In this document: positions 4,389 through 57,388 of the stretch, one piece after another
Layout: each line of letters begins with the position of its first letter
Numbering within the stretch: the stretch's first letter is position 1
DNA from: Escherichia coli
GTDB taxonomy: Bacteria > Pseudomonadota > Gammaproteobacteria > Enterobacterales > Enterobacteriaceae
Length of the DNA: 64,000 bases
Direction: 5' to 3' (one strand)
Assembly: GCF_024223415.1 (NCBI RefSeq)
Contig: NZ_CP100500.1
Program-made: the position numbers and the translations under genes
The notes under the pieces: generated by a model
What the model saw: only the letters and a program-made list of their open reading frames with translations
What the model was told of the DNA's origin: nothing
Database searches by the model: none

Positions 4389-4393
4389 ACCGG

Positions 4394-14970: not shown

Positions 14971-16365
14971 GTGGATATGTTTATCCTTGAAACGCTGAAT
15001 TTTGTTGTTGATATACTTAAAGTGCCCGCGATACTGGTCGGCTTGATTGCCTTAATTGGTCTGGTTGCCCAGAAAAAATCTTTTTCAGATGTTGTTAAAG
15101 GTACAATTAAAACTATTCTCGGCTTTATTGTACTGGGCGGTGGTGCCACTGTTTTGGTTGGTTCGTTAAATCCTCTTGGGAGTATGTTTGAACATGCCTT
15201 TAATATTCAGGGCATCATTCCGAATAATGAGGCTATTGTTTCTATTGCGCTGGAAAAATATGGCGCATCGACGGCCCTTATTATGGCATTTGGTATGGTG
15301 GCGAATATTATTGTTGCCCGCTTTACCCGCCTTAAATATATCTTCCTGACCGGACACCACACATTTTACATGGCCTGCATGATTGGTGTGATTCTGACAG
15401 TGGCTGGTTTTGAAGGTATATCACTGGTCTTTACCGGTTCTCTTATTCTGGGACTTGTGATGGCATTTTTCCCGGCATTAGCACAACGCTATATGAAGCG
15501 TATTACGGGGAATGATGACATTGCTTTTGGTCACTTTGGCACTCTGGGATATGTACTTTCTGGCTGGATTGGCAGCGTGTGCGGTAAAGGTTCCCGCTCC
15601 ACCGAAGAGATGAATTTGCCCAAAAATCTGAGCTTCCTGCGCGACAGTTCCATCTCTATTTCTCTTACGATGATGGTGATTTATCTGATCATGGCGATCA
15701 GTGCTGGTCGTGAGTTCGTTGAAAGCCAGTTCAGTGGTGGTCAAAACTACCTTGTCTACGCCATCATAATGGCCATCACCTTCGCTGCTGGTGTATTTAT
15801 TATTCTGCAAGGCGTGCGTTTAATCCTTGCTGAAATAGTTCCGGCATTTACCGGGTTTTCAGAAAAGCTGGTGCCGAATGCCCGTCCGGCCCTCGATTGC
15901 CCGGTTGTGTATCCGTATGCGCCAAACGCAGTGTTAGTTGGTTTCTTGTTTAGCTTTTTTGGCGGTCTGGTAGGGCTATTTTTGTTGGGACAGATGAAAC
16001 TGGTGTTGATTCTTCCGGGTGTCGTTCCTCACTTTTTTACCGGGGCGGCTGCTGGCGTATTTGGTAACGCTACGGGGGGACGTCGTGGCGCAATGATTGG
16101 TGCTTTTGCGAATGGCTTATTGATTACCTTCCTGCCTGTACTGTTATTGCCGGTTCTTGGGGCGATAGGCTTTGCTAATACGACCTTTTCCGATGCAGAT
16201 TTTGGTGCTGTCGGCATCGTCCTCGGAAACCTGGCACGTTATCTCTCACCTTTTGCCATCACCGGACTTGTAGTAGCGCTATTTGTGCTGCTGGTTGCCT
16301 GGAACATTTTCGCCAGTAACAAAATCGCTGCCAAAGCGCAGAAGAAGAGTGGAGCCAAATCATGA
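14971..16365 (+). CDS. PTS ascorbate-family EIIC permease (UlaA/SgaT-like)
   Basis: 464-aa polytopic membrane protein immediately after EIIB. Confidence 0.85.
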   Translation: MDMFILETLNFVVDILKVPAILVGLIALIGLVAQKKSFSDVVKGTIKTILGFIVLGGGATVLVGSLNPLGSMFEHAFNIQGIIPNNEAIVSIALEKYGASTALIMAFGMVANIIVARFTRLKYIFLTGHHTFYMACMIGVILTVAGFEGISLVFTGSLILGLVMAFFPALAQRYMKRITGNDDIAFGHFGTLGYVLSGWIGSVCGKGSRSTEEMNLPKNLSFLRDSSISISLTMMVIYLIMAISAGREFVESQFSGGQNYLVYAIIMAITFAAGVFIILQGVRLILAEIVPAFTGFSEKLVPNARPALDCPVVYPYAPNAVLVGFLFSFFGGLVGLFLLGQMKLVLILPGVVPHFFTGAAAGVFGNATGGRRGAMIGAFANGLLITFLPVLLLPVLGAIGFANTTFSDADFGAVGIVLGNLARYLSPFAITGLVVALFVLLVAWNIFASNKIAAKAQKKSGAKS

Positions 16366-19365: not shown

Positions 19366-20601
<1,236 letters not shown>

Positions 20602-33978: not shown

Positions 33979-34784
33979 GCGTCAATACGGTGCTCCGTTG
34001 ACGCTTACCGTTTACCGGATAATGAGCGAAAATATCCTGTTGTTACATGACAAACCATCACGACCGCAGCGGGAACATAAAGGCCGAATATCGGTAAGGA
34101 AAGCGACCAGCGTTGATGTTCTGATGGCTTTGAGTTCGGTTGCGATGATGGCGAAAAAGTCCGGGTTACGTTCGCTCTGGACTGTTGCGATCGTGAAGCT
34201 ATCGACTGGGCATCCAATACGGGAGGTTACAATAAAGCGACAGTGCAGGATGTGATGTTAGGAGCGATAGAAAAACTCTTTGGCGATAAAGTACCGGAAC
34301 AGTCCATCCGGTGGTTGACAGATAACGGTTCAGCGTATAGAGCGCATGAAACACGGCAGTTCGCCAGAGAGTTGGATCTGGAGCCCTGCACAACGGCAAT
34401 CAGCAGCTCTCAGAGTAATGGAATGGCAGAAAGGTTAGTGAAAACGATGAAGGAAGACTACATTGCGTTCATACAGAAACCGAATGTAATAACGGCATTG
34501 CATAACCTTGCATAGGCGTTCGAGAATTACAATGAGAACCACCCGCATAGTGCGTTAGGTTATCTCTCACCACGGGAATATCGATGTCAGCGGATAACGT
34601 CACCTTAGATGTAGCAGTTGCCAAACAGTGACTCAAGGGCAGGCTTACCGCATACACTGACACTTAGCGGATCGACAGAATATTATTAACAGTTCATCAC
34701 TGAACGCTACATAATCAGAGTTGCATAAATAAAATGTTATGTTATAACATTTTAATACCGACATATGTTTTCGGATGTATATGA

Positions 34785-36755
34785 ATGTATATGAATGTAA
34801 TCAGAACTGTCATTTGTACATTAATTATAGTCCCGGTGGGACTACAGGCAGCGACCAGTCATTCTTCTATGGCTAAAGATACAATCACCATTGTCGCGAC
34901 AGGAAATCAGAACACGGTATTTGAAACGCCGTCGATGGTCAGTGTCGTCACGAATGACACACCGTGGAGTCAGAATGCGGTTACATCGGCCGGCATGCTG
35001 AAAGGTGTTGCCGGTCTCAGCCAGACTGGTGCAGGACGGACCAATGGGCAGACCTTTAATCTACGCGGCTATGACAAAAGCGGGGTACTTGTTCTTGTTG
35101 ACGGCGTCCGCCAACTTAGTGACATGGCAAAAAGCAGTGGCACTTATCTGGATCCGGCTCTTGTCAAACGTATCGAAGTTGTCCGCGGGCCAAACTCCAG
35201 TCTGTACGGCAGTGGCGGGCTGGGAGGTGTAGTGGACTTCAGAACTGCCGATGCAGCAGATTTCCTTCCCCCCGGAGAGACAAACGGTTTAAGTCTGTGG
35301 GGAAATATTGCCAGTGGTGACCACAGCACAGGCTCGGGGCTCACCTGGTTCGGTAAAACCGGAAAAACAGATGCGCTCCTTTCTGTCATTATGCGTAAAA
35401 GAGGTAATATCTATCAAAGTGATGGTGAGCGCGCACCTAACAAGGAAAAACCTGCAGCCCTGTTTGCGAAAGGCTCTGTCGGTATAACAGACAGTAACAA
35501 AGCAGGTGCCAGCTTGCGTCTCTACCGGAATAACACCACTGAACCGGGCAATCCCACTCAGACACATGGTGACAGCGGCCTGCGTGACAGAAAAACAGTA
35601 CAAAATGACGTACAGTTCTGGTACCAGTACGCTCCTGTGGATAACAGCCTCATCAATGTACAGTCAACGTTATATCTCAGTGATATCACTATCAAGACAA
35701 ACGGTCACAACAAAACGGCAGAATGGAGAAACAACAGAACCTCCGGTGTTAATGTTGTCAACAGGAGTCATACTCTGATTTTTCCGGGAGCCCATCAGTT
35801 AAGTTATGGCGCTGAATATTACCGTCAGCAGCAGAAGCCAGAAGGCTCTGCCACACTATATCCGGAAGGAAATATTGACTTTACATCGTTGTATTTCCAG
35901 GATGAAATGACAATGAAAAGCTACCCTGTTAACATTATCGTCGGTTCCCGCTATGACCGGTACAAGAGCTTCAATCCCCGTGCCGGAGAACTGAAAGCCG
36001 AACGCCTGTCCCCAAGGGCGGCGATTTCAGTCTCACCGACAGACTGGCTGATGATGTACGGCTCCATATCCTCTGCATTCCGAGCGCCCACAATGGCAGA
36101 AATGTACAGGGATGATGTACATTTTTACCGCAAGGGTAAACCCAATTACTGGGTTCCTAACCTTAATCTGAAACCAGAAAATAACATCACCCGTGAGATT
36201 GGCGCAGGTATTCAACTGGATGGCCTGCTTACAGACAATGACCGGCTGCAGTTAAAAGGCGGATATTTCGGAACGGATGCCAGAAACTATATTGCCACAC
36301 GCGTGGATATGAAACGGATGCGTTCTTATTCTTATAATGTATCCCGGGCCCGTATCTGGGGATGGGATATGCAGGGAAATTACCAGTCTGATTATGTTGA
36401 CTGGGTGCTTTCTTATAACCGGACGGAAAGTATGGATGCCAGCAGCAGGGAATGGCTGGGCTCCGGCAATCCTGACACACTTATCAGTGACATCAGCATA
36501 CCTGTTGGTCATAGAGGCGTTTATGCCGGATGGCGTGCTGAACTTTCAGCATCAGCCACGCATGTGAAAAAAGGCGACTCCTATCAGGCTGGCTATGCCA
36601 TACATTCCTTTTCACTGTCTTATAAGCCTGTAAGTGTTAAAGGCTTTGAGGCGTCAGTAACTCTGGATAATGCCTTCAACAAGCTTGCCATGAATGGCAA
36701 AGGTGTGCCGCTTTCAGGCCGAACTGTCAGTCTTTATACCCGTTATCAGTGGTAA
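34785..36755 (+). CDS. TonB-dependent outer-membrane haem/haemoglobin receptor (ChuA/ShuA family)
   Basis: 656 aa; GRTNGQTFNLRGYDKSGVLVLVDGVRQ plug motif, FRAPTMAEMY box, C-terminal TRYQW. Confidence 0.85.
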   Translation: MYMNVIRTVICTLIIVPVGLQAATSHSSMAKDTITIVATGNQNTVFETPSMVSVVTNDTPWSQNAVTSAGMLKGVAGLSQTGAGRTNGQTFNLRGYDKSGVLVLVDGVRQLSDMAKSSGTYLDPALVKRIEVVRGPNSSLYGSGGLGGVVDFRTADAADFLPPGETNGLSLWGNIASGDHSTGSGLTWFGKTGKTDALLSVIMRKRGNIYQSDGERAPNKEKPAALFAKGSVGITDSNKAGASLRLYRNNTTEPGNPTQTHGDSGLRDRKTVQNDVQFWYQYAPVDNSLINVQSTLYLSDITIKTNGHNKTAEWRNNRTSGVNVVNRSHTLIFPGAHQLSYGAEYYRQQQKPEGSATLYPEGNIDFTSLYFQDEMTMKSYPVNIIVGSRYDRYKSFNPRAGELKAERLSPRAAISVSPTDWLMMYGSISSAFRAPTMAEMYRDDVHFYRKGKPNYWVPNLNLKPENNITREIGAGIQLDGLLTDNDRLQLKGGYFGTDARNYIATRVDMKRMRSYSYNVSRARIWGWDMQGNYQSDYVDWVLSYNRTESMDASSREWLGSGNPDTLISDISIPVGHRGVYAGWRAELSASATHVKKGDSYQAGYAIHSFSLSYKPVSVKGFEASVTLDNAFNKLAMNGKGVPLSGRTVSLYTRYQW

Positions 36756-36773
36756 CCTCTCAGGAAATAAATC

Positions 36774-37565
36774 ATGATGAAAAATACAGGCTATATCTTA
36801 GCTCTTTGTCTGACAGCATCGGGGCATGTCCTGGCCCATGATGTCTGGATTACCGGCAAACAGGCAGAGAACAACGTTATCGCAGAGATTGGTTATGGTC
36901 ATAATTTCCCCTCAAAGGGCACGATTCCTGACAGAAGGGATTTCTTTGAAACTCCCCGGCTTTATAACGGGAAAGAGACAATAACGCTGAAGCCAACATC
37001 CACGGATTATGTCTATAAAATTGAGACTGCAGGCAACGGTAATAGCTACGTTCTGTCAACGAAAATGAAACCGGGATACTGGTCGAGAACCTCGTCAGGA
37101 TGGAAGCCTGTCAGCCGGGAGGGCAGAAATGATGTGGCATACTGTGAGTTTGTGACTAAATATGCAAAATCTTTTATTCCTGGTGAACAGCAGATGCCAG
37201 CACAACTCTATCAGTATCCAATAGGGGATGAGCTTGAAATCATTCCGTTATCCGATATCAGTCGTTTCGGTGAAGATGTGAAGCTGAAAGTTCTGTATAA
37301 AACTTCCCCGCTTGCCGGAGCCACTCTGGAGCTTGACTCTGTCAGTTATCTGAAATCATCCCGCCATACTCATGCGGCAGAGCATAAACATTCGGCTCAT
37401 AAAGCAGAACTTACCTTTGTAAGTAATGAGGACGGTATCATCACTGTACCCTCCCTTCATGTCGGGCAATGGCTAGCTAAAGTCAAAAATAAGAAAGTAT
37501 TTCAGGACAAAAACCTGTGTGATGAAACTGTCGATGTGGCAACCTTAAGCTTCTCCCGAAATTAA
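36774..37565 (+). CDS. DUF4198-like periplasmic protein
   Basis: 263 aa with signal peptide, 18 bp after the receptor stop; family from memory. Confidence 0.6.
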   Translation: MMKNTGYILALCLTASGHVLAHDVWITGKQAENNVIAEIGYGHNFPSKGTIPDRRDFFETPRLYNGKETITLKPTSTDYVYKIETAGNGNSYVLSTKMKPGYWSRTSSGWKPVSREGRNDVAYCEFVTKYAKSFIPGEQQMPAQLYQYPIGDELEIIPLSDISRFGEDVKLKVLYKTSPLAGATLELDSVSYLKSSRHTHAAEHKHSAHKAELTFVSNEDGIITVPSLHVGQWLAKVKNKKVFQDKNLCDETVDVATLSFSRN

Positions 37566-37811
37566 TAATACTATTCCTGCCCTGTAATTTACGGGCAGGG
37601 TATATCAACCGGAAATAGCCTACTGACATCCATGTATAAAGCCACATAATTATTTTGTTGATGTATCTTACCTAATACGTAAGCGTAAAGCCAATGCCGT
37701 CTGTAACTCCTGATCCTTGCAGACTAAATGTAAGCGCCCTATCAGCGACGTCTTGTGAAAATTGTCCTGTCTGGCAACAATTGCGCCCATCTATATTGAT
37801 GGACACGAACG

Positions 37812-38486
37812 ATGAATTCCCAGACAACAAAAGATATTCTCTGCTTCCGTTCTTATTTGCCTGATGCCCTACGTTTAAGATTTGAAGATAAACTGACTAT
37901 CCGAGCCATCGCTCAGCGTCTAGGTCTCAGTCATTCCACAATACATACGCTTTTTCAGCGATTTCTTGCATCCGGTATCGCATGGCCATTGCCCGATTCA
38001 GTTTCATTCGCTCAACTTGACGCCATCCTTTATGCCAACAGAAAGAAGGAATTAACAGAGCCTCAAATCAGAGAAGGCTCATGGCGAAAAGAACGGCGAA
38101 CCAGCTATAGCCGTGAATTTAAGGTCCGTCTGGCTAAGCAGGCATTACAGCCTGGTGCTGTTGTTGCCCGGATCGCCAGAGAACACGATATCAATGATAA
38201 GCTGCTGTTTAAATGGAAAAGCCAGTACGAGGACGGCTTACTGAGCGATGATGACATACAGGAATGCATGCCTGTCCCGGTGGCACTGACTGATAAGCCA
38301 GAGCCGACCAGACCAGTTACAAATCCCTTCTGGCGTAACAAGCCTGATGAGCGCCCTGAGGGGGATCCCGGAAACGTCCCACGGTGCGAGCTGCATCTTA
38401 AATCAGGTGTGGTAAAACTGTTTGACCCTCTCACTCCGGAACTGTTACGGGCGCTAATCCGCGAAATGAAAGGGGGTACCCGATGA
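37812..38486 (+). CDS. IS66-family orf1 with about 90-aa N-terminal HTH extension
   Basis: 224 aa; IAREHDINDKLLFKWKSQY core. Confidence 0.75.
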   Translation: MNSQTTKDILCFRSYLPDALRLRFEDKLTIRAIAQRLGLSHSTIHTLFQRFLASGIAWPLPDSVSFAQLDAILYANRKKELTEPQIREGSWRKERRTSYSREFKVRLAKQALQPGAVVARIAREHDINDKLLFKWKSQYEDGLLSDDDIQECMPVPVALTDKPEPTRPVTNPFWRNKPDERPEGDPGNVPRCELHLKSGVVKLFDPLTPELLRALIREMKGGTR

Positions 38487-38830
38487 TAACGCTGCCGACC
38501 GGTACCAAAATCTGGATCATCGCTGGCATCACAGATATGCGTTGTGGCTTCAATGGCCTGGCTTCGAAGGTGCAGAACACGCTGAAAGATGACCCGTTCT
38601 CCGGGCATATCTTCGTCTTCCGGGGCCGCAGTGGCAAAATGGTGAAAATACTGTGGGCCGATCGTGATGGGTTATGCCTGTTCGCCAAACGCCTGGAACG
38701 GGGCCGCTTCATCTGGCCGGTGACCCGGGAAGGGAAAGTGCACCTGACGCCAGCTCAGTTATCCATGCTACTGGAGGGGATCGCGTGGCAACATCCCAAA
38801 CGGACAGAACGGCCTGGCATCCGGATATAA
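38483..38830 (+). CDS. IS66-family TnpB (orf2)
   Basis: 115 aa; KIWIIAGITDMRCGFNGL. Confidence 0.85.
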   Translation: MITLPTGTKIWIIAGITDMRCGFNGLASKVQNTLKDDPFSGHIFVFRGRSGKMVKILWADRDGLCLFAKRLERGRFIWPVTREGKVHLTPAQLSMLLEGIAWQHPKRTERPGIRI

Positions 38831-38849
38831 CCCGTGATAAAACAAGGGA

Positions 38850-40454
38850 ATGAACAATGAACTCCCCGACGATATTGAGCTGCTTAAAGCCATGTTGCGT
38901 AAGCAACAGAGTCGGCTTCGCCAGTATACCTGTCAGGTCGCGGGCTATGAGCAGGAAATTGAACGGCTGAAAGCGCAACTCGACAGGTTGCGTCGTATGT
39001 TGTTCGGCCAGAGTTCAGAGAAAAAGCGTCATAAGCTTGAAAATCAGATCCGACAGGCAGAAAAACGACTGTCGGAACTGGAAAACCGGCTGAACACAGC
39101 CAGAAATCTTCTGGAAGATGCATCGTCAGTCACAGATTCACCTGACACCAGTCCCCCGTCAGAAAACCCGATCGCCAGTAAGCCTGAATCCCTGGGACGA
39201 AAATCTTCACGAAAACCGCTGCCGGCAGAACTTCCCCGGGAGACACATCGCCTTCTGCCTGCTGAAACCAGTTGCCCGGCCTGTGGAGGTGTTCTGAAAG
39301 AAATGGGGGAAACAATCTCAGAGCAACTGGATATCATTAATACCGCCTTTAAAGTTATTGAAACCATACGTCCCAAACGGGCCTGTAGCCGGTGCGACCA
39401 TATTGTGCAGGCGCCGGTTCCTTCAAAACCCATTGCACGCAGTTATGCCGGAGCGGGGCTTCTGGCTCATATCGTCACCGGGAAGTATGCAGACTATCTG
39501 CCGTTATACCGCCAGTCAGAAATATACCGTCGTCAGGGCGTGGAACTGAGCCGCGCCACGCTGGGGCGCTGGACCGGTGCCGTTGCTGAACTGCCGGAGC
39601 CGCTGTATGACGTGCTGCGCCAGTATGTGCTGATGCCCGGTAAAGTCCATGCGGATGATATCCCCGTTCCGGTCCAGGAGCCGGGCAGCGGTAAAACCCG
39701 GACAGCCCGGCTGTGGGTCTACGTCCGTGATGACCGCAATGCCGGTTCGGAAATGCCCCTGGCGGTCTGGTTCGCGTACAGTCCGGACCGGAAAGGCATA
39801 CATCCCTAGACTCATCTGGCCGGTTACAGCGGAGTGCTTCAGGCCGATGCTTACGGTGGCTACCGGGCGTTATACGAATCCGGCAGAATAACGGAAGCCG
39901 CGTGTATGGCTCATGCCCGGAGAAAAATCCACGATGTGCATGCAAGAGTGCCAACCGACATCACCACGGAAGCCCTGCGGCGTATCGGTGAACTGTATGT
40001 CATCGAGGCAGAAGTCCGGGGATGTTCAGCAGAACAGCGTCTGGCGGTAAGAAAAGCCAGAGCTGCGCCACTGATGCAGTCACTGTATGACTGGATACAG
40101 ACTCAGATGAAAACACTGTCGCGTCACTCGGATACGGCAAAAGCGTTCGCATACCTGCTGAAACAGTGGGATGGCCTGAACGTGTACTGCAGTAATGGCT
40201 GGGTGGAAATCGACAACAACATCGCAGAGAACGCCTTACGGGGAGTGGCCGTAGGCCGGAAAAACTGGCTCTTCGCGGGTTCCGACAGCGGTGGCGAACA
40301 TGCGGCGGTGTTGTACTCGCTGATCGGCACATGCCGTCTGAACAATGTGGAACCAGAAAAATGGCTGCGTTACGTCATTGAGCATATCCAGGACTGGCCG
40401 GCAAACCGGGTACGCGATCTGTTGCCCTGGAAAGTGGATCTGACCTCTCAGTAA
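38850..40454 (+). pseudogene. IS66-family transposase TnpC interrupted by an in-frame TAG at 39807-39809
   Basis: Two ORFs (38850-39809, 39834-40454) in the same frame; the intact copy has Glu at this position. Confidence 0.75.
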
Positions 40455-40491
40455 ATATCAATACGGTTCTGGCGAGCCGCTTACGAACAAT

Positions 40492-42205
40492 GTGAATTAT
40501 GTTAATTATGTTTTCAGGCAGATGCTTCTCTGTCTGTTATTGTTCTGGCTGCCTGTATCCTGGGCTACCGAAAGTGGCTGGTTGCGTTCTCCTGAGAATG
40601 AGCATGCCAGTATACGGATACGTGCTGATTCCGTGGTCTCCGGGGAAACACGTGTTTTGCTGGACGTTAAACTGGATAACGGCTGGAAAACTTACTGGCG
40701 CTCACCCGGATAAGGGGGGATTGCACCGTCAGTCGACTGGAAAAGTGAAACACCGGAAGTGGAGTGGTACTGGCCTGGCCTTCACGTTTTGACGTGGCCG
40801 GCATTACCACTACGGGATATCACAACACAGTCACGTTTCCCGTGGTGTTACGTGGTATATCACCTGAGAGGATCACTGGCGTACTGACCCTGCCTGTCTG
40901 CAGCAATGTCTGTCTGCTGACCGATTACCCTTTCACTGTGAATGTTTCCACACAGGATACAACATTTGCACATGATTACGCACAGGCCATGGGGAAAATT
41001 CCGCTTTCCCATGGGGTAGCGGATTCCTTAAACGCGGTTTACCGACCTGGTGGACTGCTCATTACCGCAATACGGGCAGACGGCTGGTCATCTCCGGATA
41101 TTTATCTGGATTCTGTTGATTATGCAAGCTTCGGTAAGCCGCAGATGCAGATTGACGGCAAGAATCTGCTCGCATCTGTGCCGGTCACGGACAACTGGGG
41201 AGAGGGGGCGCCGGACCTGACTGGCCAACAAGTCACACTGGTTATTGAAAGCGGCGGCCTCGCTCAGGAAAGTACGCTTACGGTTGCGGCAGGTGCAACC
41301 AAAATAGCAGAGAATGTCTTACCTCTTTGGCAGGTCACTCTGATGGCATTAGCTGGTGGACTCATTCTTAACCTGATGCCCTGTGTATTACCGGTTCTGG
41401 GGATGAAGCTGGGCTCAGTTTTACTGGTGGAAGAGAAAAACCGTCAGCAGATTCGATGTCAGTTTCTGATGTCTGTAGCCGGGATCCTTACTTCCTTTAT
41501 GGCTCTGGCTACGTTAATGACCCTTCTGCGGCTGACAAACCGGGCTCTGGGGTGGGGGATCCAGTATCAGAGTCCCTGGTTTATTGTTCTGATGACGCTG
41601 GTTATGCTGATTTTTAGTGCCAGTCTGTTTGGCCTGTTTGAGTTCCGCCTGCCTTCCGGCCTCATGACTCGTCTGGCGACATTTGGTGGTAATGGAATGT
41701 CCGGACATTTCTGGCAGGGCGCTTTTGCGACTCTTCTGGCGACACCGTGTAGCGCCCCCTTCCTCGGTACGGCAGTGGCAGTGGCGCTGACGGCATCACT
41801 ACCCACTCTGTGGGGGATTTTCTTTGCACTGGGCGTGGGAATGAGTCTTCCGTGGCTGTTGGTGGCGTTGCGACCCGGGCTTGCGTTGTGTTTGCCCCAT
41901 CCGGGAGGATGGATGAATATTTTGCGTCGGGTGCTTGGCCTGATGATGCTGGGTTCTGCCTTCTGGCTGACAACACTGTTACTGCCACACTTGGGAGTAT
42001 CCTCACACAGTACAACGAAAGAACAGGTTGTCTGGCAGCCTCTCAGTGAACAGGCGATTAAGGAGGCGCTGGCTCAGCATAAGCGGGTATTTATCGATGT
42101 GACTGCAGACTGGTGTGTTACCTGTAAATTCAATAAATACAATGTGCTGCAAAAAGACAATGTGCAGAAGTCGCTGCAGGAGGCGGATGTTGTTGCACTG
42201 CGTGG
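40492..42205 (+). pseudogene. scsB: ScsB-like (DsbD-family) thiol:disulfide interchange gene, decayed
   Basis: In-frame TAA at 40714-40716, 5-bp tandem duplication TGGCC near 40769-40779, 3' end truncated by IS629-like element at 42206. Confidence 0.7.
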
Positions 42206-42259
42206 TGAACCGCCCCGGGAATCCTGGAGACTAAACTCCCTGAGAAAGAGGTAAACAGA

Positions 42260-42586
42260 ATGACTAAAAATACTCGTTTTTCCCCCGAAGTCCGTCAGAG
42301 GGCGATTCGTATGGTTCTGGAAAGTCAGGGCGAATATGACTCACAGTGGGCGGCAATTTGTTCCATTGCCCCAAAGATTGGCTGTACACCGGAGACTCTG
42401 CGTGTCTGGGTACGCCAGCATGAGCGGGATACCGGAGGCGGTGATGGCGGGCTCACCACCGCTGAACGTCAGCGTCTGAAAGAGCTGGAACGTGAAAATC
42501 GTGAACTGCGCCGCAGTAACGATATCCTTCGCCAGGCTTCCGCTTATTTTGCGAAGGCGGAGTTCGACCGCCTCTGGAAAAAGTGA
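42260..42586 (+). CDS. IS629-like transposase OrfA
   Basis: [30 protein letters not shown]...; 108 aa. Confidence 0.85.
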
Positions 42587-43473
42587 TGCCACTGCTGGAT
42601 AAGCTGCGTAAGCTGTACGGGGTCGGACCGGTATGCAGTGAACTACATATTGCCCCGTCAACGTATTACCACTGTCAGCAACAGCAGCATCATCCTGATA
42701 AACGCAGCGCCCGTGCGCAGCGTGATGACTGGCTGAAGAAAGAGATACAGCGCGTATACGATGAAAATCACCAGGTGTACGGTGTGCGTAAAGTCTGGCG
42801 TCAGTTGTTACGGGAAGGTATCAGAGTGGCCAGATGCACTGTGACACGTCTTATGGCGGTTATGGGTTTTGCCGATGTTCTCCGGGGTAAAAAGGTCCGC
42901 ACTACCGTCAGCCGGAAAGCCGTTGCCGCAGGCGACCGCGTAAACCGTCAGTTTGTGGCAGAACGTCCTGACCAGTTGTGGGTGGCTGATTTTACTTACG
43001 TCAGCACATGGCAGGGGGTCGTCTATGTGGCGTTCATCATTGATGTGTTTGCCGGATACATCGTGGGGTGGCGGGTCTCATCGTCTATGGAAACGACATT
43101 CGTGCTGGATGCTCTGGAGCAGGCGTTATGGGCCCGTCGACCGTCCGGCACAGTCCATCACAGTGATAAAGGTTCTCAGTATGTATCGCTGGCCTACACA
43201 CAGCGGCTTAAGGAAGCCGGATTACTGGCATCAACAGGAAGTACTGGTGACTCGTATGACAACGCGATGGCGGAGAGCATCAATGGCCTTTACAAAGCGG
43301 AGGTAATACACCGTAAGAGCTGGAAAAACCGGACAGAAGTGGAGCTGGCCACACTCACGTGGGTGGACTGGTATAACAATCGACGATTGCTGGAAAGGCT
43401 GGGCCATATCCCACCGGCAGAAGCAGAAAAAGCTTATTATGCTTCCATCGGAAACGATGATCTGGCAGCCTGA
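42583..43473 (+). CDS. IS629-like transposase OrfB
   Basis: 296 aa with HSDKGSQY and DNAMAES motifs. Confidence 0.85.
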
Positions 43474-43515
43474 GTTCACAGATAAAACACTCTCCAGGAA
43501 ACCCGGGGCGGTTCA

Positions 43516-43790
43516 CTCCGGAGGTGGCGGCTTTATCTGCCAGGGGAGAGAATGTGATGACGATTGCATACCGTTCCGGCTCATCTGATGAGGTGAGCCG
43601 GAAGCTGGCTCTCAGGAGGAACAGGTTCCCGGTGATCAATGATGCTGATGGCACAATATCCCGTTTATGGAGAATTAGAGTAACCCCGACGTTCGTAGTG
43701 ATATCGAAGGGGCGGGTAATCTCCACAACCAGCGGCTGGACCAGTTCCTGGGGGATGAAGCTACGACTGCGGTGGGCCACAATAGTCTGA
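43516..43790 (+). pseudogene. Thioredoxin-like ScsD 3' fragment
   Basis: ...GENVMTIAYRSG...FPVINDADG...VTPTFVVISKGRVISTTSGWTSSWGMKLRL directly after the IS629-like right end. Confidence 0.45.
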
Positions 43791-44119
43791 GCAGAAGACA
43801 GCCTTCTGAGAAGGAAACCTTTCAGAAGACGCCCTTACCAAAGTTGGTGATGGAAAGACTGTTGGCAGAGAGACAGATGGACATATCCGGTCGCGCTTAT
43901 GAGACAAGTCTGTGGTCACAGAGCCTGTTTATCACTCAGTGTAAATGTCTTTTCTCAGTCGGGGGCCGTCCAGACGATAACTGGGTCCGATAATAAAGCT
44001 ACATCGCCCATTTTTGTGATGCTGCCTGGATTACCGGCTGTACGGCCTTGTACTGAGAAACAGAAAAAGACTTCAGTCACCCGGCGAAAACGGTCCCTGT
44101 CCCCCCGTTACCTTATTCG

Positions 44120-44239
<120 letters not shown>

Positions 44240-44301
44240 TACCCATCTGAAACCCGAACAGTTGTCCATACGCTATAACGCATTTGCAAGGATGGGTAAT
44301 C

Positions 44302-44585
44302 ATGAGTCAGCCAAATCAGCTTTGTGTGGGTATTGATGTTTCTAAAACAACTCTTGACATTGCTACTGCTAACAACGAGTTTGCTCAGTTTACTTCTTGT
44401 AACGACACCGATGGTTTTTAGCTCATCATTGCTGAATTGAGAAATCATTCGGTGGCGCTGGTTTTGATGGAGGCTACTGGTGGGTTTGAAGCTGCTGTAG
44501 CCTGTTCACTTTAGGCTGAAGGTTTTGATATAGCTGTTATCAATCCCAGACAGGCCAGGAATTTCTCTCGTGCTAAAATCAGTTA
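44302..44585 (+). pseudogene. IS110-family transposase N-terminal fragment with in-frame stops
   Basis: MSQPNQLCVGIDVSKTTLDIA...MEATGGFE...DIAVINPRQARNF interrupted by TAG codons. Confidence 0.55.
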
Positions 44586-44787
44586 TTTCCCGAGGTTGGA
44601 TAGCCCTGTCCGATCAACATTTCCCAACATAGCTCACAAAACAGACACTTTATTTATTGACTTTGTTTTAATATGTGATAAATACGGAGAAGTGGTCTAA
44701 CAGGTTTAATGATTGGTCGGACAAGATGATAATAAATGGCATTTTATATCAACCAATTTTCATGTTTATACATAGAGGAGGGATTAT

Positions 44788-45777
44788 ATGAAAATTAGGT
44801 TATTTATCCATTCGTTATTTTATTCATCAGTTCTGGTGACTTTGCTTATCAATAGCGTAAATGCCGCAGAAAAAGTGACATTAAAATTGGCACACAACCT
44901 TGAACGCAGTCATGTTGTACACCAGACTTTTGAACATCTGGCAAACGAGGTAAAACAACTTTCTAATGGCAATATTGTCATTCGTATATACCCCAGTAGC
45001 CAGATGGGTAATGCGCGAGAAACTATGGAGTTGTTACAAAATGGCGCACTGGATATGACCAAAGGTTCCGCCAGTGATCTGGAGTCTTTTGATAATATTT
45101 ATGCTATCTATAATTTGCCGTTCTTATTTAAAGATCAGGCGCACTTCAACAAAGTGGTTTTTGGTGAAGTTGGTAAAGAAATTATGGACTCAACAAAAGA
45201 CAAAGGCTTTTTTGCTTTATCAGCTTATGTAGCGGGTACTCGCAGTTTCTATGCGAAAAAACCGATTACTAAGCCAGAAGATCTTAAAGGGCTGAAAATT
45301 CGTGTTCAGCCAAGCCCGACCACCATCAAAATGATTGAACTGATGGGGGGCTCACCCACTCCAATTTCATTTGGCGAAGTTTATACTGCGATGCAGCAAG
45401 GTGTAGTAGATGGCGCAGAAAATAACGTGCCTTCCTGGGTGCAGACTCGACATATCGAAATTGCCAAAGTCTTTTCTGAAGATGAACATGCCTCAATTCC
45501 TGACTTTTTGGTTATCTCCACCAAAACATGGAATAAATTAACCCCAGAACAGCAACAAATCCTCGAAACAGCGGCGAAGAAATCCGAAGCTTATCAACAA
45601 AAATTGTGGGAAAAAATTGACGCTGACACACGTGCTCAGGCGAAAGCTATGGGTGGTGAAATCGTTAAGGTTGATAAAGCCCCATTCCGTGCCGCAGTTC
45701 AACCTCTGTTTGACGACTTCAAAAAAGATCCAAAACAAGCTGCTTTGTTAGAGAAATTCGACAACGCTGCTCAATAA
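44788..45777 (+). CDS. TRAP transporter substrate-binding subunit (DctP family)
   Basis: 329 aa with signal peptide; LKGLKIRVQPS and DGAENN motifs. Confidence 0.85.
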   Translation: MKIRLFIHSLFYSSVLVTLLINSVNAAEKVTLKLAHNLERSHVVHQTFEHLANEVKQLSNGNIVIRIYPSSQMGNARETMELLQNGALDMTKGSASDLESFDNIYAIYNLPFLFKDQAHFNKVVFGEVGKEIMDSTKDKGFFALSAYVAGTRSFYAKKPITKPEDLKGLKIRVQPSPTTIKMIELMGGSPTPISFGEVYTAMQQGVVDGAENNVPSWVQTRHIEIAKVFSEDEHASIPDFLVISTKTWNKLTPEQQQILETAAKKSEAYQQKLWEKIDADTRAQAKAMGGEIVKVDKAPFRAAVQPLFDDFKKDPKQAALLEKFDNAAQ

Positions 45778-45812
45778 TATTTCGGGCCAGTCTCTGGCCC
45801 TGATTTTCCAGG

Positions 45813-46325
45813 ATGCTTACAATGATATTTAACCGCCTGAAACTTGCGGTAGACCGCGTCATTGCCGCGTTTTCTGTCGCCGTCATGCTTGCTCTGGTTG
45901 TATGCGTAGTCTGGCAAGTATTTAGCCGCTACGTACTTAACCAGCCAAGTACATTAACCGATGAGCTGGCACGCTTTTTGATGATCTGGGTAGGATTATT
46001 AGGTGCTGCATATACCGTCGGCGCGCAGAGACATCTCTCTATCGATTTATTTGCTCTCGCCCTGAATAAGCGCAAGCAATTACTTCTTAGTATAGTCATT
46101 AACATTCTCATTTTAGGTTTTGCCGGTTCGGTCATTGTGACTGGTGGCCTGAAATTAATTGATAAAACACTGGCAACATCACAGGTATCTGCCGCGATGC
46201 AAATACCGATGGGATACGTATATATCATTCTGCCATTAAGTGGATTGGTGATGATGTTTTATGCCTTGTGTTTTATTAATCAAAGCATTCAACAACTGAA
46301 ACAACCTGCGCAGGAGGCCAGTTAA
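45813..46325 (+). CDS. TRAP transporter small permease (DctQ family)
   Basis: 170 aa, four predicted TM helices. Confidence 0.8.
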   Translation: MLTMIFNRLKLAVDRVIAAFSVAVMLALVVCVVWQVFSRYVLNQPSTLTDELARFLMIWVGLLGAAYTVGAQRHLSIDLFALALNKRKQLLLSIVINILILGFAGSVIVTGGLKLIDKTLATSQVSAAMQIPMGYVYIILPLSGLVMMFYALCFINQSIQQLKQPAQEAS

Positions 46326-47626
46326 TGGATAGTTATATCGCGCTTACACTATTTGGCTGTTTTTTTGTGCTGGTCTTTATTGGTGTGCCCATTTCGTTCT
46401 CAATCGGTATTGCGACTGTAGCTTCAATGCTGTTGATGTTTCCCTGGGATATCGCGGCAATCACTGTTTCGCAACGATTGGCTAATGGACTGGATAACTT
46501 TGCCCTGTTGGCAATCCCCTTTTTCATCTTTGCCGGAACACTGATGAACAGCGGCGGTATTGCGATACGTTTGATTAACCTCGCCCAGGTAATGGTTGGC
46601 CGCGTTCCTGGTTCGCTTGGTCATGTGAACGTCCTGGCGAATATGATGTTTGGTTCCATTTCTGGTTCAGCCGTTGCGGCAGCTGCTGCCGTTGGTGGCA
46701 CACTGAATCCCATTCAGACCAAAGAAGGTTATGATCCGGCATTTTCTACCGCTGTAAACGTCTCATCTTGTATTACTGGATTACTGATACCGCCCTCAAA
46801 CGTGTTAATTGTATTTTCCCTGACAGCTGGCGGCGTTTCTGTAGCATCGCTATTTATGGCGGGATATTTGCCAGGGATCTTAATGGGTCTCGCGGTAATG
46901 ATAGTCTGCGGCATTATTGCTAAACGCCGTGGCTACCCACTTTCAGAAAGAGCAACCTTTGCTCAGGCATGTAAAGCGTTTCTGGATGCCTTACCAAGTT
47001 TGCTTCTGGTGTTCATTGTAATGGGCGGCATTCTGGGCGGCATTTTTACCGCAACTGAAGCGTCAGCAATTGCCGTGGTCTACACATTTATTCTCTCGGT
47101 GCTGATTTACCGGGAAGTAAAATGGCGCGATTTACCCAAACTGATTCTGGAGTCGGTTGTTACCACTTCGATTGTATTACTGTTGATCGGTTTTTCCGTG
47201 GGCATGTCCTGGGCAATGACCAATGCTGATATTCCTTATATGATCAGCGACGCGTTGATGGGGATTTCTGATAACCCACTGGTCATATTGCTGCTGATTA
47301 ATATCGTCTTATTAATTGTCGGCATCTTTATGGACATGACACCGGCTGTACTAATCTTCACACCAATCTTCTTGCCGATTGCACAAGAGCTGGGAATGGA
47401 TCCGGTACATTTCGGTATTATGATGGTGGCCAACCTTTGTATTGGGCTGTTAACACCGCCGGTGGGTAGTGCGCTATTTGTTGGTTGTTCTATTTCAGGT
47501 GTGAAGATTCAACATTTGCTTAGACCATTGCTACCCTTTTATACAGCATTGCTAGTCGCATTGATGATGATCACTTACATTCCACAAATCTCTTTATTTA
47601 TCCCACAATTTCTAGGGCTGATGTAA
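46325..47626 (+). CDS. TRAP transporter large permease (DctM family)
   Basis: 433-aa polytopic membrane protein, abuts dctQ. Confidence 0.85.
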   Translation: MDSYIALTLFGCFFVLVFIGVPISFSIGIATVASMLLMFPWDIAAITVSQRLANGLDNFALLAIPFFIFAGTLMNSGGIAIRLINLAQVMVGRVPGSLGHVNVLANMMFGSISGSAVAAAAAVGGTLNPIQTKEGYDPAFSTAVNVSSCITGLLIPPSNVLIVFSLTAGGVSVASLFMAGYLPGILMGLAVMIVCGIIAKRRGYPLSERATFAQACKAFLDALPSLLLVFIVMGGILGGIFTATEASAIAVVYTFILSVLIYREVKWRDLPKLILESVVTTSIVLLLIGFSVGMSWAMTNADIPYMISDALMGISDNPLVILLLINIVLLIVGIFMDMTPAVLIFTPIFLPIAQELGMDPVHFGIMMVANLCIGLLTPPVGSALFVGCSISGVKIQHLLRPLLPFYTALLVALMMITYIPQISLFIPQFLGLM

Positions 47627-47638
47627 ATAATTAATAGC

Positions 47639-47660
47639 CGGACAATTTTTATTGTCCGGT
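47639..47660 (+). terminator. Hairpin after dctM (CCGGACAAT tttt ATTGTCCGG)
   Basis: 9-bp perfect stem 12 bp after the stop; only a short A/T tail follows. Confidence 0.4.
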
Positions 47661-47670
47661 AAAATTCATC

Positions 47671-47764
47671 GTAAGCGCTCCTTCTGTGCCGTCTTGTGGT
47701 GGTTGTCCTGTCTGGCAACAATCGCGTCCATCTATTGATGGACACGAACGATGAATTCTCAGAC
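47671..47764 (+). mobile_element. IS66-family left-end fragment truncated by IS2
   Basis: GTAAGCGCTCC terminus and an 80-bp match to 37738-37825, ending at the orf1 start codon where IS2 begins. Confidence 0.6.
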
Positions 47765-47775
47765 TGGATTTGCCC

Positions 47776-48681
47776 CTATATTTCCAGACACCTGTTATCA
47801 CTTAACCCATTACTGGCTTGCTGCCGTAGATATTCCCGTGGCGAGCGATAACCCAGTGCACTATGCGGATGCCATTCGTTATAATGCTCGAACGCCTCTG
47901 CAAGGTTCTTTGCTGCCGTTAACCCGTCTGGTTTAGGCATGATACTGATGTAGTCACGCTTTATCGTTTTCACGAAGCTCTCTGCTATGCCGTTACTCTC
48001 CGGACTCCGCACCGCCGTGCTCTTCGGTTCAAGCCCCAACATCCGGGCAAACTGCCGTGTTTCATTAGCCCGGTAGCATGAACCATTATCCGTCAGCCAC
48101 TCTACTGGAGACGCCGGAAGCTCGTTGCCGAAGCGGCGTTCCACCGCTCCTGGCATGACGTCCTGTACTGTTTCACTGTTGAAGCCGCCCGTAGTGACCG
48201 CCCAGTGCAGTGCCTCACGGTCACAGCAGTCCAGCGCGAACGTGACTCGCAGTTTTTCTCCGTTATCACAGCGGAACTCGAACCCGTCAGAGCACCATCG
48301 CTGATTACTTTCTTTCACAGCCACTCTGCCTGTATGTGCCCGTTTCGATGGCGGTACAGCAGGTTTTCGCTCAAGCAACAGCGCATTCTGGCGCATGATC
48401 CGGTAAACACGTTTGGCATTGATCGCAGGCATACCATCAAGTTCTGCCTGTCTGCGAAGCAGCGCCCATACCCGACGATAACCATACGTGGGCAGCTCTC
48501 CGATAACATGGTGTATACGGAGAAGCACATCCGTATCATCTGAGTGACGGCTGCGGCGACCATCTTTCCAGTCATCGGTTCGTCTGAGAATGACGTGCAA
48601 CTGCGCACGCGACACCCGGAGACAACGGCTGACTAAGCTTACTCCCCATCCCCGGGCAATAAGGGCGCGTGCGCTATCCAC
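47776..48681 (-). CDS. insD: IS2 transposase InsD
   Basis: 301 aa with DDE motifs. Confidence 0.9.
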
Positions 48682-49004
48682 TTTTTTGCCCGTCCATATT
48701 CAACGGCTTCTTTGAGGAGTTCATTTTCCATCGTTTTCTTGCCGAGCAGGCGCTGGAGTTCTTTAATCTGCTTCATGGCGGCAGCAAGTTCAGAGGCAGG
48801 AACAACCTGTTCTCCGGCGGCGACAGCAGTAAGACTTCCTTCCTGGTATTGCTTACGCCAGAGAAATAACTGGCTGGCTGCTACACCATGTTGCCGGGCA
48901 ACGAGGGAGACCGTCATCCCCGGTTCAAAGCTCTGCTGAACAATTGCGATCTTTTCCTGTGTGGTAAGCCGTCTGCGTTTCTCCGGTCCTAAGACATCAA
49001 TCAT
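48639..49004 (-). CDS. insC: IS2 InsC
   Basis: 121 aa from [12 protein letters not shown]... Confidence 0.85.
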
Positions 49005-49095
49005 CTGCTCTCCAATGACTAGTCTAAAAACTAGTATTAAGACTATCACTTATTTAAGTGATATTGGTTGTCTGGAGATTCAGGGGGCCAGTCTA

Positions 49096-49190
49096 TTCGG
49101 CAGCACTGTTGCCCTGTATCGAACAGGCCAGAGAGGATGTCCGTACCCTGCGTCATCTGCAGCTTCTGCACCAGAACCGGTGAATATCAC
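49096..49190 (+). pseudogene. 3' fragment of a yeeW-like gene cut by IS2
   Basis: Encodes ...[28 protein letters not shown], matching the C-terminus of YeeW at 685-1038. Confidence 0.5.
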
Positions 49191-49211
49191 TCACCACGCT
49201 TCATTACCCTG

Positions 49212-49243
49212 ACGCCAGCCTGAATACGGCTGGCGTTTTCGTT
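49212..49243 (+). terminator. Rho-independent terminator-like hairpin
   Basis: CGCCAGCC tgaatac GGCTGGCG followed by TTTTCGTTT. Confidence 0.5.
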
Positions 49244-49260
49244 TATAAACCAAAAGGAAA

Positions 49261-49420
49261 AATGATGATGTCAGATACCACACTCTCCCGCCCGGAGGTG
49301 GTCAGCGGGCATACGGACGTTATCTATTCCACCTCAGTCTGCCACATTCTGGCTGTACGAAAGAGTACACTGTTGCCAATCGACACAATTATCCGGCATC
49401 AAGTGAGCGATATCAGTTAA
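49261..49420 (+). pseudogene. Truncated second copy of the DUF4942-like gene
   Basis: MMMSDTTLSRPEVVSGHTDVIYSTSVCHILAVRKSTLLPIDTIIR then diverges and stops; paralogous to the minus-strand gene at 1-600. Confidence 0.5.
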
Positions 49421-49820
49421 CCGATATAGATGGGGAAGATGCTTTTATCCGGATTGGATCTATCGCGATGGTGCGAGTACCACTTGATGCAATGGAGCCT
49501 GTCGAGGCAGATGACGAGTAACAGAGCTCGGTATCTCAATCAGGACCTGATTGTCCTGGTTCGATGCCGAAAACCAGTGATTTTTCGTGTTGGTATCTGT
49601 GTTGGTATAGGATGGTGTTGTTTATTATTAACAATTTTAAATCATGAGGTTAAATCGCATGTTTGAGTCAGGCCTTCGCATCAATATCAAAACAATCAAT
49701 AAATAAGTCCTTTAACCTAGCCACGACCAATCATTGATCAACCACGAAATCCTCTCCGAAACACAGTCCCAATCCCTAAACCCTACGCTCAACATCGAAA
49801 CCCGCTTATCACCATCCCCC

Positions 49821-50690
49821 TCATCCCCTGAACACCTCCCGCCGGTGCCACGCCACAAACCCCTCCTGGGGATAGCATTCTTTCCCCATCGGCAAGGTAA
49901 TCGGCTTACCATCAAAATCCCAGAACAACCTGCCAACGATGCCTCCGCCGTTCACCGCCGGCGAAACCTGGATGCGCATATCCTCATCCAGACCAATGGA
50001 TCCTTTATCAAAATCCTTATGGTGAATCGCGCAGAGCGCCAGGCCGTTAGGGATTTCGCAGGGGCCGCCGTGCTGCTTCCACTTGATATGGGCCGCTTCC
50101 AGGGCGACGGAGGTATTATCATGGCGCATATTGAAGCCGCAGATAGCGCACTCATAGTTATAGGCGCGCAGCACCTGCTGGCGAAAATGCGGGTCGCGCT
50201 CTTTGCGGATCTGCAGCAGATCAAACCCCATCTCTTCAGCCAGTTCTTCCTGAATACTCTCCGGAAAGTGCGCCTCAAGGATCTGATGGGCGAGGGTATT
50301 GATCAGCTTCTTATTTCTGTTAAGTAACGCAAAATGCTGCTCATCAAAGCCGCCGGCGACGTGGCAGAGCTCCAGCTCTTTGCCGGGCGGCTGTCGGCTG
50401 CCCTGGGTTGAGCACTGTTCGCTGTTGTGTAGCTCCCAGAAGCCGTCGCCTTTCAGGCGCCAGAAGGGCATGTCCGGCCGGTACTGGCGGCGCTGCGGGC
50501 CAAAGCGTTCCAGCAGGCTATGCAGCTCATCACGTATCTCCGAGGCGTAGTCGAACATCCGCGCATGGCCGCGCTGGTATTGCGAGAGGACGTACAGCAG
50601 CAATAGTGGTTTATGCGGCGCACGCTGTTCGCCTTTGCGCCAGATGGTGATGTTCTCGATCGCGTGTTGCAGGGTCGTGCTGGAGGGCAT
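49821..50690 (-). CDS. HNH endonuclease with N-terminal recognition-like domain (putative type IV restriction enzyme)
   Basis: C-terminal HNH motif ECAICGF...AAHIKW...NGLALCAIHHKDFD; GC-rich; start at MPSSTTLQ. Confidence 0.75.
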   Translation of the reverse strand: MPSSTTLQHAIENITIWRKGEQRAPHKPLLLLYVLSQYQRGHARMFDYASEIRDELHSLLERFGPQRRQYRPDMPFWRLKGDGFWELHNSEQCSTQGSRQPPGKELELCHVAGGFDEQHFALLNRNKKLINTLAHQILEAHFPESIQEELAEEMGFDLLQIRKERDPHFRQQVLRAYNYECAICGFNMRHDNTSVALEAAHIKWKQHGGPCEIPNGLALCAIHHKDFDKGSIGLDEDMRIQVSPAVNGGGIVGRLFWDFDGKPITLPMGKECYPQEGFVAWHRREVFRG

Positions 50691-50869
50691 AGCGTTACAT
50701 TGGCAGCTAAATAAATGCGATGATGCTCGCAAAATCCTTGCCGATCAACCTACCAGATGCGGCGATTCTACGTGGATCGCGATTTAATTATCACTGCCAG
50801 TTATTTGTTCGAAAAGACCATAGCTTTCTATTTATACTCAAGCTTCGCGCCATCAGATAGCTATGTCTT

Positions 50870-51508
50870 ATGAAAAAACTACCGGACCATTTATCCAGGG
50901 AATGCATCATCGCCGCCATTCGCGCTTACGATGCAGGCGTTGCGCATCAGTTTAAAAGCGCGCGTCTGTATGAGATCGAGTTTGAGGGGCGTCGGTATCC
51001 TTCAAAAGCCATCGTCGGGTTAGCGGCCACGCTTGCGACGGGAACGGAATTTACCCCGGCGGATTTCAGCGGGGGGATTAAATCAAAATGCGTGCGTCTG
51101 TTACTGGAGCAAGGATTTACGATCGCGTCGCAGGGCGCTGGCGATGACGAGGTTGCGCTTTTCCCCGATGAGGGGCAGACGACCATGGAGTACGTGGAAG
51201 GGGCGGCGTTGCAGGTGGTGGTCAATCGCTATGAGCGCGACCGTCAGGCTCGTCAGGCGGCGCTTCGCCTGCATGGCTGCCAGTGTCAGGTATGCGGTCT
51301 GGATATGGCCAGCCGCTATGGCGATATCGGCCAGGGCTTTATCCATATCCACCATCTCATCCCGCTGGCCGGGATAAAGCAGGACTACCGCCTGAACCCT
51401 GAAACCGATCTGATCCCGGTATGTCCCAACTGCCATGCGATGCTGCACCGGCGAGATCCGCCGTTTACCCCCGAAGAGCTGAAGGCCCGGCTGCGCCCCA
51501 CAGACTGA
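50870..51508 (+). CDS. McrA-like HNH endonuclease
   Basis: C-terminal CQVCG...HIHHLIPLAG...DLIPVCPNCHAMLH resembles the E. coli McrA HNH region; divergent from the preceding gene. Confidence 0.75.
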   Translation: MKKLPDHLSRECIIAAIRAYDAGVAHQFKSARLYEIEFEGRRYPSKAIVGLAATLATGTEFTPADFSGGIKSKCVRLLLEQGFTIASQGAGDDEVALFPDEGQTTMEYVEGAALQVVVNRYERDRQARQAALRLHGCQCQVCGLDMASRYGDIGQGFIHIHHLIPLAGIKQDYRLNPETDLIPVCPNCHAMLHRRDPPFTPEELKARLRPTD

Positions 51509-56844: not shown

Positions 56845-57156
56845 ATGACAATGATAAAAAAACTTCCATTAACCATGGCGGTTATCGCCGCGTTTTTTCC
56901 GCTTACCTCTGTAATGGCGCAAGAATTTACTCAGGAACAGATCGACGCCATCGTCGCCAAAGCCGTTGATAAAGCGCTGGCCGAGCAAATTGACGCCTTG
57001 AAAGCCGCCGCCCGTGAATGCGGTCCGTTACCCGATGAGCCGTTTATTCAGATGGCGTTTCTTTCTCTGCCAGTGATCCCCGCGCTGAAACTAACCAGTC
57101 AGGGGCTATTTGATGGCGAGAAGTTTGCCTTCACCACGCTGGAAGTCACGGAATGA
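56845..57156 (+). CDS. Small ORF with porin-like signal peptide and N-terminus (possible truncated porin paralogue)
   Basis: First ~50 aa ([47 protein letters not shown]) parallel the N-terminus of the porin at 62214, then diverge. Confidence 0.4.
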
Positions 57157-57388
57157 AAAAAAGACCGTATTAGCTGATTTACGGAAAATATGTACTCCAC
57201 AAGCGTCAATATCAGACGAGGCCTGGGAAAAGATAATGTTGTCTGATGAAAGTAATCAGCAGCACATCCGTGAGGCTATTGTGGCGATGGAACGCAATAA
57301 CCAGAACAATTACTGGGAAGCGTTAGGCAAGGTTGAATGCCCGGATATGTAGACGTGAAGCTGCAGCTTCACGTCATACATTTAGCAC

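Follow-up and report, generated by a model that had tools for sequence, protein, structure and literature searches.

The ~590 bases at 49096-49683 of the window, by which we mean the whole 64,000-nucleotide stretch of Escherichia coli DNA analysed here, are very probably a non-functional relic: the distal end, on the attR side, of a second integrative island of the GI-leuX/CP4 type, paralogous to the end of the resident island. The relic consists of the 3' end of a DUF957 gene, a hairpin, the start of a DUF4942 gene fused to a regulator fragment, a spacer of ~140 nt and a degenerate 3' end of leuX. Part of it pairs in inverted orientation with sequence at the start of the window, and the two arms of this pair are the paralogous ends of two different islands that stand head-to-head, not the products of a duplication or inversion in place. 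The features under discussion are listed here, with the basis of each assignment in brackets.

1-600, minus strand: DUF4942-family gene, 5' 600 nt, cut by the window edge (Pfam PF13708 at residues 87-199, E=2.5e-36; translation)
470-773, minus strand: left arm of the inverted repeat (repeat search and alignment)
685-1038, minus strand: 117-aa ORF, DUF5983 N-terminal domain fused in frame to a DUF957 C-terminal part (Pfam and RefSeq comparison)
47765-49095, transposase genes on the minus strand: IS2, 1331 bp, IS3 family (terminal sequences; near-identical copies annotated as IS3 family / IS2 transposase)
49095-49398, plus strand: right arm of the inverted repeat (repeat search and alignment)
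49097-49183, plus strand: DUF957-family gene, last 28 codons and stop, an 87-nt pseudogene fragment (translation against DUF957 proteins)
49211-49247, plus strand: terminator-like hairpin with a 10-bp stem and a T-tract, between the DUF957 and DUF4942 fragments (sequence)
49262-49420, plus strand: 52-codon ORF whose first ~45 codons are DUF4942-family (alignment to the left-arm gene; RefSeq 'missing C-terminus')
49393-49521, plus strand: regulator C-terminal fragment, 42 codons in another frame (RefSeq: helix-turn-helix / transcriptional regulator, N-terminus missing)
49660-49683, plus strand: degenerate copy of the tRNA-Leu leuX 3' end, an attR-like scar (16/19 core match to GGTTCGAGTCCGGCCTTCG)
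49821-50732, minus strand: phosphorothioated-DNA-binding restriction endonuclease (PT-REase) gene, the first gene outside the scar (NCBIfam NF045808, 438 bits against a cut-off of 180)
50870-51508, plus strand: HNH endonuclease gene (paired with a PT-REase gene also at native leuX-nan loci)

A repeat search of the window found one long inverted pair, 470-773 against 49095-49398, with arms of 304 nt that are 85% complementary and lie 48,321 nt apart. Gapped local alignment left these limits unchanged and returned an ungapped match with 258 of 304 positions identical, and comparison of arm with arm by blastn gave E=3e-85. The inverted copies that a preliminary description of this DNA had placed at the window start and from 49096 onwards are thus real. 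Base 49095 is the final base of IS2, and its match to the left arm is a coincidence; the start given earlier, 49096, is the base directly after the IS2 right end (...CCAGTCTA at 49095; written also ...GGGGGCCAGTCTA). The end given earlier, 49420, corresponds to the stop that closes the truncated ORF of 52 codons, whereas the arm homology has already ended at 49398 and the relic runs on to 49683.

The left arm is part of the resident island's end and includes codons 1 to ~45 of its DUF4942 gene (470-600). Homologues of 1-600 are annotated 'DUF4942 domain-containing protein' in strains A65EC, GF60 and E19035; the gene had been called intact, a label that cannot stand, since the window edge cuts it. 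The minus-strand yeeW-like gene beside it had also been taken to be intact, but ORF 685-1038 is an in-frame fusion: residues 5-60 match Pfam PF25638 (DUF5983_N, E=6e-29), the tail of ~44 residues matches the DUF957 proteins of H8, A65EC and GF60, and ~356 nt are absent relative to strain H8. Positions 1-25000 of the window are found in APEC O2:K1:H5 E19035 at 97% identity and 95% coverage, next to yicL (the selC locus), and these first 25 kb of the resident island also occur at lower identity in GF60, next to cadC (the pheU side). The resident island, with its distal end at 1-1038, is of the selC/pheU type.

On the plus strand, fragments of yeeW and DUF4942 had been reported. The DUF4942 start is present; the 87-nt piece, however, is the 3' end of a DUF957 gene and not yeeW/DUF5983, as its product matches the C-terminus of RefSeq 'DUF957' proteins in H8, A65EC, GF60 and FORC_031. 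An identical stretch in relatives is carried in RefSeq as 'hypothetical protein, missing N-terminus'. Searched against Pfam, the full-length DUF957 protein gave no match, and the name DUF957 is taken from the RefSeq annotation. The hairpin at 49211-49247 has a counterpart in the left arm with one stem mismatch. From ~49398 on, the 52-codon ORF is unrelated to the left-arm DUF4942 gene. Furthermore, the right arm holds no DUF4942 Pfam domain, since the domain begins at residue 87 of the left-arm homologue and only ~45 N-terminal codons are kept here. The DUF4942 start is fused to the regulator fragment by an old deletion. No full-length parent of the 42-codon regulator fragment was found: tblastn against plasmids returned a single near-identical copy, and a search of 5.8 billion proteins returned 34 matches, all of at most 76 aa and domain-free. 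The four small ORFs of the left arm and the relic gave no NCBIfam match.

The scar at 49660-49683 marks the true outer edge of the relic; the copy is degenerate, and attR-like as judged from its sequence. A tRNA-derived repeat at the outer boundary, as expected for the distal end of an island, is therefore present. With a leuX query from K-12, the leuX-like 19-mer had a single match in the window and none in 100 shuffles. When the whole leuX gene and its flank were aligned locally, the score of the relic was no better than that of other places in the window, and only the search with the 19-nt 3' end discriminated. ARAGORN found no tRNA genes in the window, and an Rfam scan of the window returned only the ALIL pseudoknot, in an unrelated IS. 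Of the second element's integrase, backbone and toxin-antitoxin module, nothing is found to the left of 49096, where IS2 abuts, and no 'head' of the element remains. The plus-strand block at 6175-12773 (Gp2 and AlpA-like genes) was considered as this head and rejected, because the same divergent arrangement of Gp2 and the GTPase gene is seen in GI-leuX of EC958, and islands that lack the relic contain the block as well.

The stretch 49399-49683 is present once per genome in 1617 of 5426 complete E. coli genomes (30%), mostly at 95-99% identity, and in almost all of these 1617 it does not extend past 49680-49684, where the tRNA-like copy ends. In EC958, FORC_031, 3359 and 2013C-3252, the relic sequence (90-98% identity) ends a complete YeeU-CbtA-DUF5983-DUF957 backbone, which reads in full GTPase, Ag43/Cah, DUF932, antirestriction, RadC, DUF987, YeeU, CbtA, DUF5983, DUF957; the right arm thus has both the homology and the gene order of an intact island end. 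Positions 49096-49680 are 95.4% identical over 586 nt to the island end of FORC_031, where they follow a complete plus-strand backbone, 49399-49683 are 98% identical to EC958, and the right arm is 90% identical to the end of H8's own leuX island. Because the same sequence ends intact islands, and because homology stops at the tRNA-like copy, we infer that the relic is the attR-side end of a leuX-type island. The genes beyond the scar vary between strains: EC958 has restriction-modification genes and McrBC, FORC_031 has SNF2, methyltransferase and helicase genes, EC50 has an integrase gene, and the window has PT-REase and HNH genes; the latter are degraded in 2013C-3252 and H8, beside nanS/nanM.

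Inverted arms that bracket an interval could also have arisen in place, through inverted duplication of the resident end or a 48-kb inversion between the arms, and H8 carries a longer mirror image, of 582 nt at 90% identity around a 12-kb interval. We nevertheless regard such an origin as very improbable, because the arms are only 85% identical to each other, with a longest exact run of 25 nt, while the right arm is 95% identical to the FORC_031 end and the sequence beyond it closely matches EC958. Furthermore, the right arm carries the DUF4942'::HTH' fusion and the leuX-like scar, whereas the left arm runs on as a normal DUF4942 gene beyond the fusion point, and all 11 of 11 RefSeq genomes with the relic next to a PT-REase gene share one orientation. 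This single orientation, and arms that are gene fragments of such limited identity, also argue against a site-specific invertible segment, and the annotations of relatives contain no invertase gene near either arm. Recombination between the arms should be rare today, because the longest exact run that they share is so short. The arms had been described as copies of the same terminus, which these identities contradict. Of the suggestion that two CP4-type elements were inserted head to head or that an inversion took place, the first half holds insofar as the tail of a second island lies opposite to the resident tail, and the second is unlikely. Nor is the ~48 kb between the arms shown to be a bracketed unit, as had been proposed: it combines backbone of the resident island and sugar cargo resembling that of AGI-3 with a module full of IS elements, which in ECCNB12-2 is contiguous.

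IS2 at 47765-49095 is not a simple insertion: the 5-bp sequences on its two sides, CAGAC (left) and TTCGG (right), differ and form no target duplication. Simple IS2 insertions with 5-bp duplications are found in FORC_031 (GCTAC, in DUF5983), 3359 (ATCTG, at the DUF5983 end) and GF60 (ATTCC, in DUF4198). The right junction, at which the IS2 right end is followed by TTCGGCAGCACTG of the relic, is identical in nine complete genomes, which have one other left flank in common; the left junction, between an orphan IS66 end and IS2, occurs in the window and in no other RefSeq complete genome. IS2 itself is present in several copies, at a median of 6 places in each genome. Between the IS2 copies of the window and H8 there are 11 differences, all in positions 54-929, and the last 402 nt are identical. 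By our own arithmetic, the chance of all 11 falling in this part is about 0.02, and the pattern is consistent with a crossover inside IS2. The IS2 copy of ECCNB12-2, which has nearly the same left flank, is ruled out as the recombination partner by its 41 differences from the window copy. There is no second IS2 at the other end of the interval, as a composite transposon or an IS-bounded invertible segment would have, and the only further inverted pair involves a distinct IS3-family fragment (34311-34591), with a match of 71%.

Several further observations concern the insertion sequences of this region. An orphan IS66-family terminal repeat at 47671-47764 abuts the IS2 left end; with the left end of the complete IS66-family element at 37730-40460 it shares 82% identity. 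In ECCNB12-2, IS2 is joined to the same orphan IS66 end 11 bp further in, and a third junction lies 4 bp from that of the window; the breakpoints cluster. The IS3-family element at 42206-43515, in which Rfam recognises an ALIL frameshift pseudoknot (RF01497, 116 bits, 42541-42657), is an insertion when compared with the ECCNB12-2 module, which is otherwise contiguous. IS2 is found in one orientation at three positions within ~500 bp of the island end, in FORC_031 (15001-16333 of the locus compared), in 3359 (4870-6200 of the locus compared) and in the window, and two of these three copies are simple insertions with target duplications. The three positions suggest either repeated targeting of the DUF5983/DUF957 region or chance.

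Three arrangements in relatives correspond to the window with a segment removed. The H8-type arrangement equals the window minus 12774-47764, with IS2 kept; A65EC equals the window minus 2840-49065, with the last 30 nt of IS2 kept and GGTT microhomology at the junction; and GF60 equals the window minus 37631-49096, with TC microhomology, a right breakpoint no more than 3 nt from the IS2 tip and no IS2 beside the relic. Because 34549-47760 is a naturally contiguous module in ECCNB12-2, GF60 is the deleted form. All three have the appearance of deletions of the window arrangement that are anchored at this IS2 or inside it. On grounds of parsimony, and not of a dated phylogeny, we infer that the window is the most complete form and the ancestor of the H8-type, GF60 and A65EC arrangements. 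IS2 is the pivot of these rearrangements, and it is plausible that it also caused the truncation of the second island. An IS2-mediated deletion of the toxin-antitoxin module had been put forward earlier; that IS2 abuts the break and lacks the 5-bp duplication makes this a reasonable reading, although an intermediate, with a DUF5983 or CbtA remnant to the left of IS2 joined at 49096, was not found in any genome.

The truncation could instead predate IS2, given that GF60, with no IS2 there, has the relic boundary to within 1-3 nt, in which case IS2 would have landed exactly on an old break. An older illegitimate deletion of this kind, with IS2 arriving later or being merely adjacent, accords with the junction of GF60, in which DUF4198 is separated from the relic by 63 nt with no IS2 and only the 2-nt microhomology TC. 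We think it unlikely, however, because the sequence past 37630 continues in ECCNB12-2 and in the window, which makes GF60 the deleted form, and because an endpoint this close to the IS2 tip is improbable unless IS2 was present. Furthermore, at this same junction A65EC still has the terminal 30 nt of IS2, and nine more genomes have IS2 at exactly this position. It is less probable still, to the point of being hardly credible, that the arrangement is an assembly artefact in which the TRAP/IS66 module and the relic were wrongly joined across the 1.3-kb IS2 repeat. Such a join would fit the multicopy nature of IS2, a left junction seen in the window only and the absence of a target duplication, but the right junction is identical in nine independent complete genomes, GF60 joins the DUF4198 module to the relic in the order and orientation expected from a deletion of the window arrangement, and ECCNB12-2 has the series TRAP-IS66 end-IS2, with an 11-bp offset.

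The relic moves with its own right flank, which comprises the PT-REase and HNH genes and sugar genes (GH43/MFS/xylA/porin). At the leuX locus of H8 and 2013C-3252, the order DUF957-DUF4942'-HTH'-PT-REase'-HNH is found beside nanS/nanM, and the relic looks like a captured copy of such a leuX-locus junction. The PT-REase and HNH genes of the window are divergent, and that for PT-REase is intact; the site behind the scar holds different defence genes in each strain. At native leuX loci beside nanS/nanM, the PT-REase/HNH pair is diverged (67-70%) or degraded. The mirror image in H8 (NZ_CP010172.1 483223-499626) is bigger than that of the window: the series DUF957-DUF4942'-HTH'-scar-PT-REase-HNH is present twice, inverted, around an interval of ~12.7 kb, and the two copies are 90% identical over the island end and 67-70% identical over the endonuclease genes.

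Further out, the 5' stub of a porin gene at 56845-56984 precedes remnants of two core genes from around selC that now lie stranded in the island: the 3' end of adeD (56977-57162), which is inverted and 96% identical to E. coli adeD, and part of yicS (57176-57351; 84%). The segment 56985-62203 encodes a LacI-family regulator, a cellobiose-type PTS IIC and a GH1 6-phospho-beta-glucosidase, upstream of a LamB-like porin gene (62199-63593), and is missing from GF60, H8 and A65EC; these strains appear to have lost it through recombination between the 84%-identical porin 5' ends (56916-56984 and 62282-62350). Two sets of direct repeats are also present in the window. At 63666-63867, two 78-nt copies (88% identical, 124 nt apart) resemble REP/BIME-type intergenic repeats, and at 19921-20217 a YadA-like adhesin gene contains three tandem 99-nt repeats (99% and 83% identical), for which relatives differ in copy number.

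We propose the following history for the region. The end of a leuX-type island would have been captured, along with the flank outside it (PT-REase, HNH and GH43/MFS/xylA/porin), in inverted orientation into another CP4-type island, by recombination either between homologous island backbones or between IS copies. Flank and relic would have come from another lineage as a piece of a leuX-locus junction. On the inner side, the breakpoint within DUF957 would be the one now marked by IS2, and the rest of the second island (the toxin-antitoxin module and everything upstream) may have been lost in an IS2 event, either an adjacent deletion or IS2-IS2 recombination. Later deletions would then have given rise to the shorter variants in other strains. 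A bolder version is possible but doubtful: that IS2 is an active pivot and the window the progenitor of the nested deletions in H8-type genomes, A65EC and GF60, that the loss of 37631-49096 in GF60 was a transposase-initiated one-ended excision of 11.5 kb with its end at the right terminus of IS2, and that the degenerate leuX scar, once carried into selC/pheU islands, still docks defence cargo (PT-REase/HNH) there.

Most likely, the relic does nothing today and is at most a poor substrate for homologous inversion. It could be argued that it is functional, whether as a conserved 50-52-aa protein, as a terminator or as an att site still used by integrases: the frame and stop of the truncated ORF are kept in diverged copies (window, FORC_031 and H8), the sequence occurs in 30% of genomes, and in EC50 an integrase gene follows the tRNA-like scar. 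Yet the copies of the ORF differ by many amino-acid replacements and a 2-codon deletion, no Pfam or NCBIfam family was matched, the plus strand has no promoter-like site and RefSeq calls all of the pieces pseudogene fragments, and we therefore give a present-day function very little credence.

The relic is an ordinary rearrangement scar that is also found in other E. coli genomes, and parts of it are already partial CDSs in RefSeq. Mosaic tRNA-associated E. coli islands, CP4-like backbones, IS-mediated deletions and decayed island ends are likewise already known, and the analysis reveals no new mechanism or gene; its value is mainly for annotation. It describes the island as a mosaic of at least two CP4-type islands and a captured leuX-locus junction, in which one IS2 copy marks a breakpoint, and several of the shorter variants known from other strains can be traced back to it. 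This can be of use in reconstructing the exchange of modules among selC, pheU and leuX islands and in giving four small pseudogene fragments their correct labels.

The resident backbone at 1-6074 resembles the K-12 elements CP4-44, CP4-57 and CP4-6 in its genes for a GTPase, DUF932, antirestriction, RadC, DUF987, YeeU antitoxin, CbtA toxin and DUF5983 (yeeW-like), an order that follows the annotations of relatives and that is presumably the same in the K-12 elements. It differs from them in that no integrase or tRNA gene lies within this window. The CbtA/CbeA-type toxin-antitoxin family of the K-12 CP4 elements has been described (PMC5371832, PMC5624674). The resident-like island of E19035 can be likened to AGI-3 of APEC BEN2908, which is a selC-associated island according to PMC3325963 and the reference list of PMC12928451, by its selC location and its LacI/PTS/transketolase sugar cargo; E19035 has neither the relic nor the right-hand module.

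The arrangements around IS2 share several features with IS-mediated adjacent deletion and IS-IS recombination of IS2 and the IS3 family: the IS is retained, one flank is constant while the other varies, there is no target duplication, and the deletions are nested. They differ from classical adjacent deletion in that GF60 and A65EC lost all or most of IS2, and the mechanism proposed here derives from the arrangements themselves. With GI-leuX, a named island of E. coli ST131 EC958 (PMC4134206), and its counterparts in FORC_031 and 042-type strains, the relic shares the distal order DUF957, hairpin, DUF4942 start::regulator fragment and leuX-like scar, at 95-98% identity. In contrast to those islands, only the last ~590 nt are present here, inverted inside another island, and the scar is followed by an intact PT-REase/HNH pair, whereas there it is followed by restriction-modification/McrBC or SNF2 genes.
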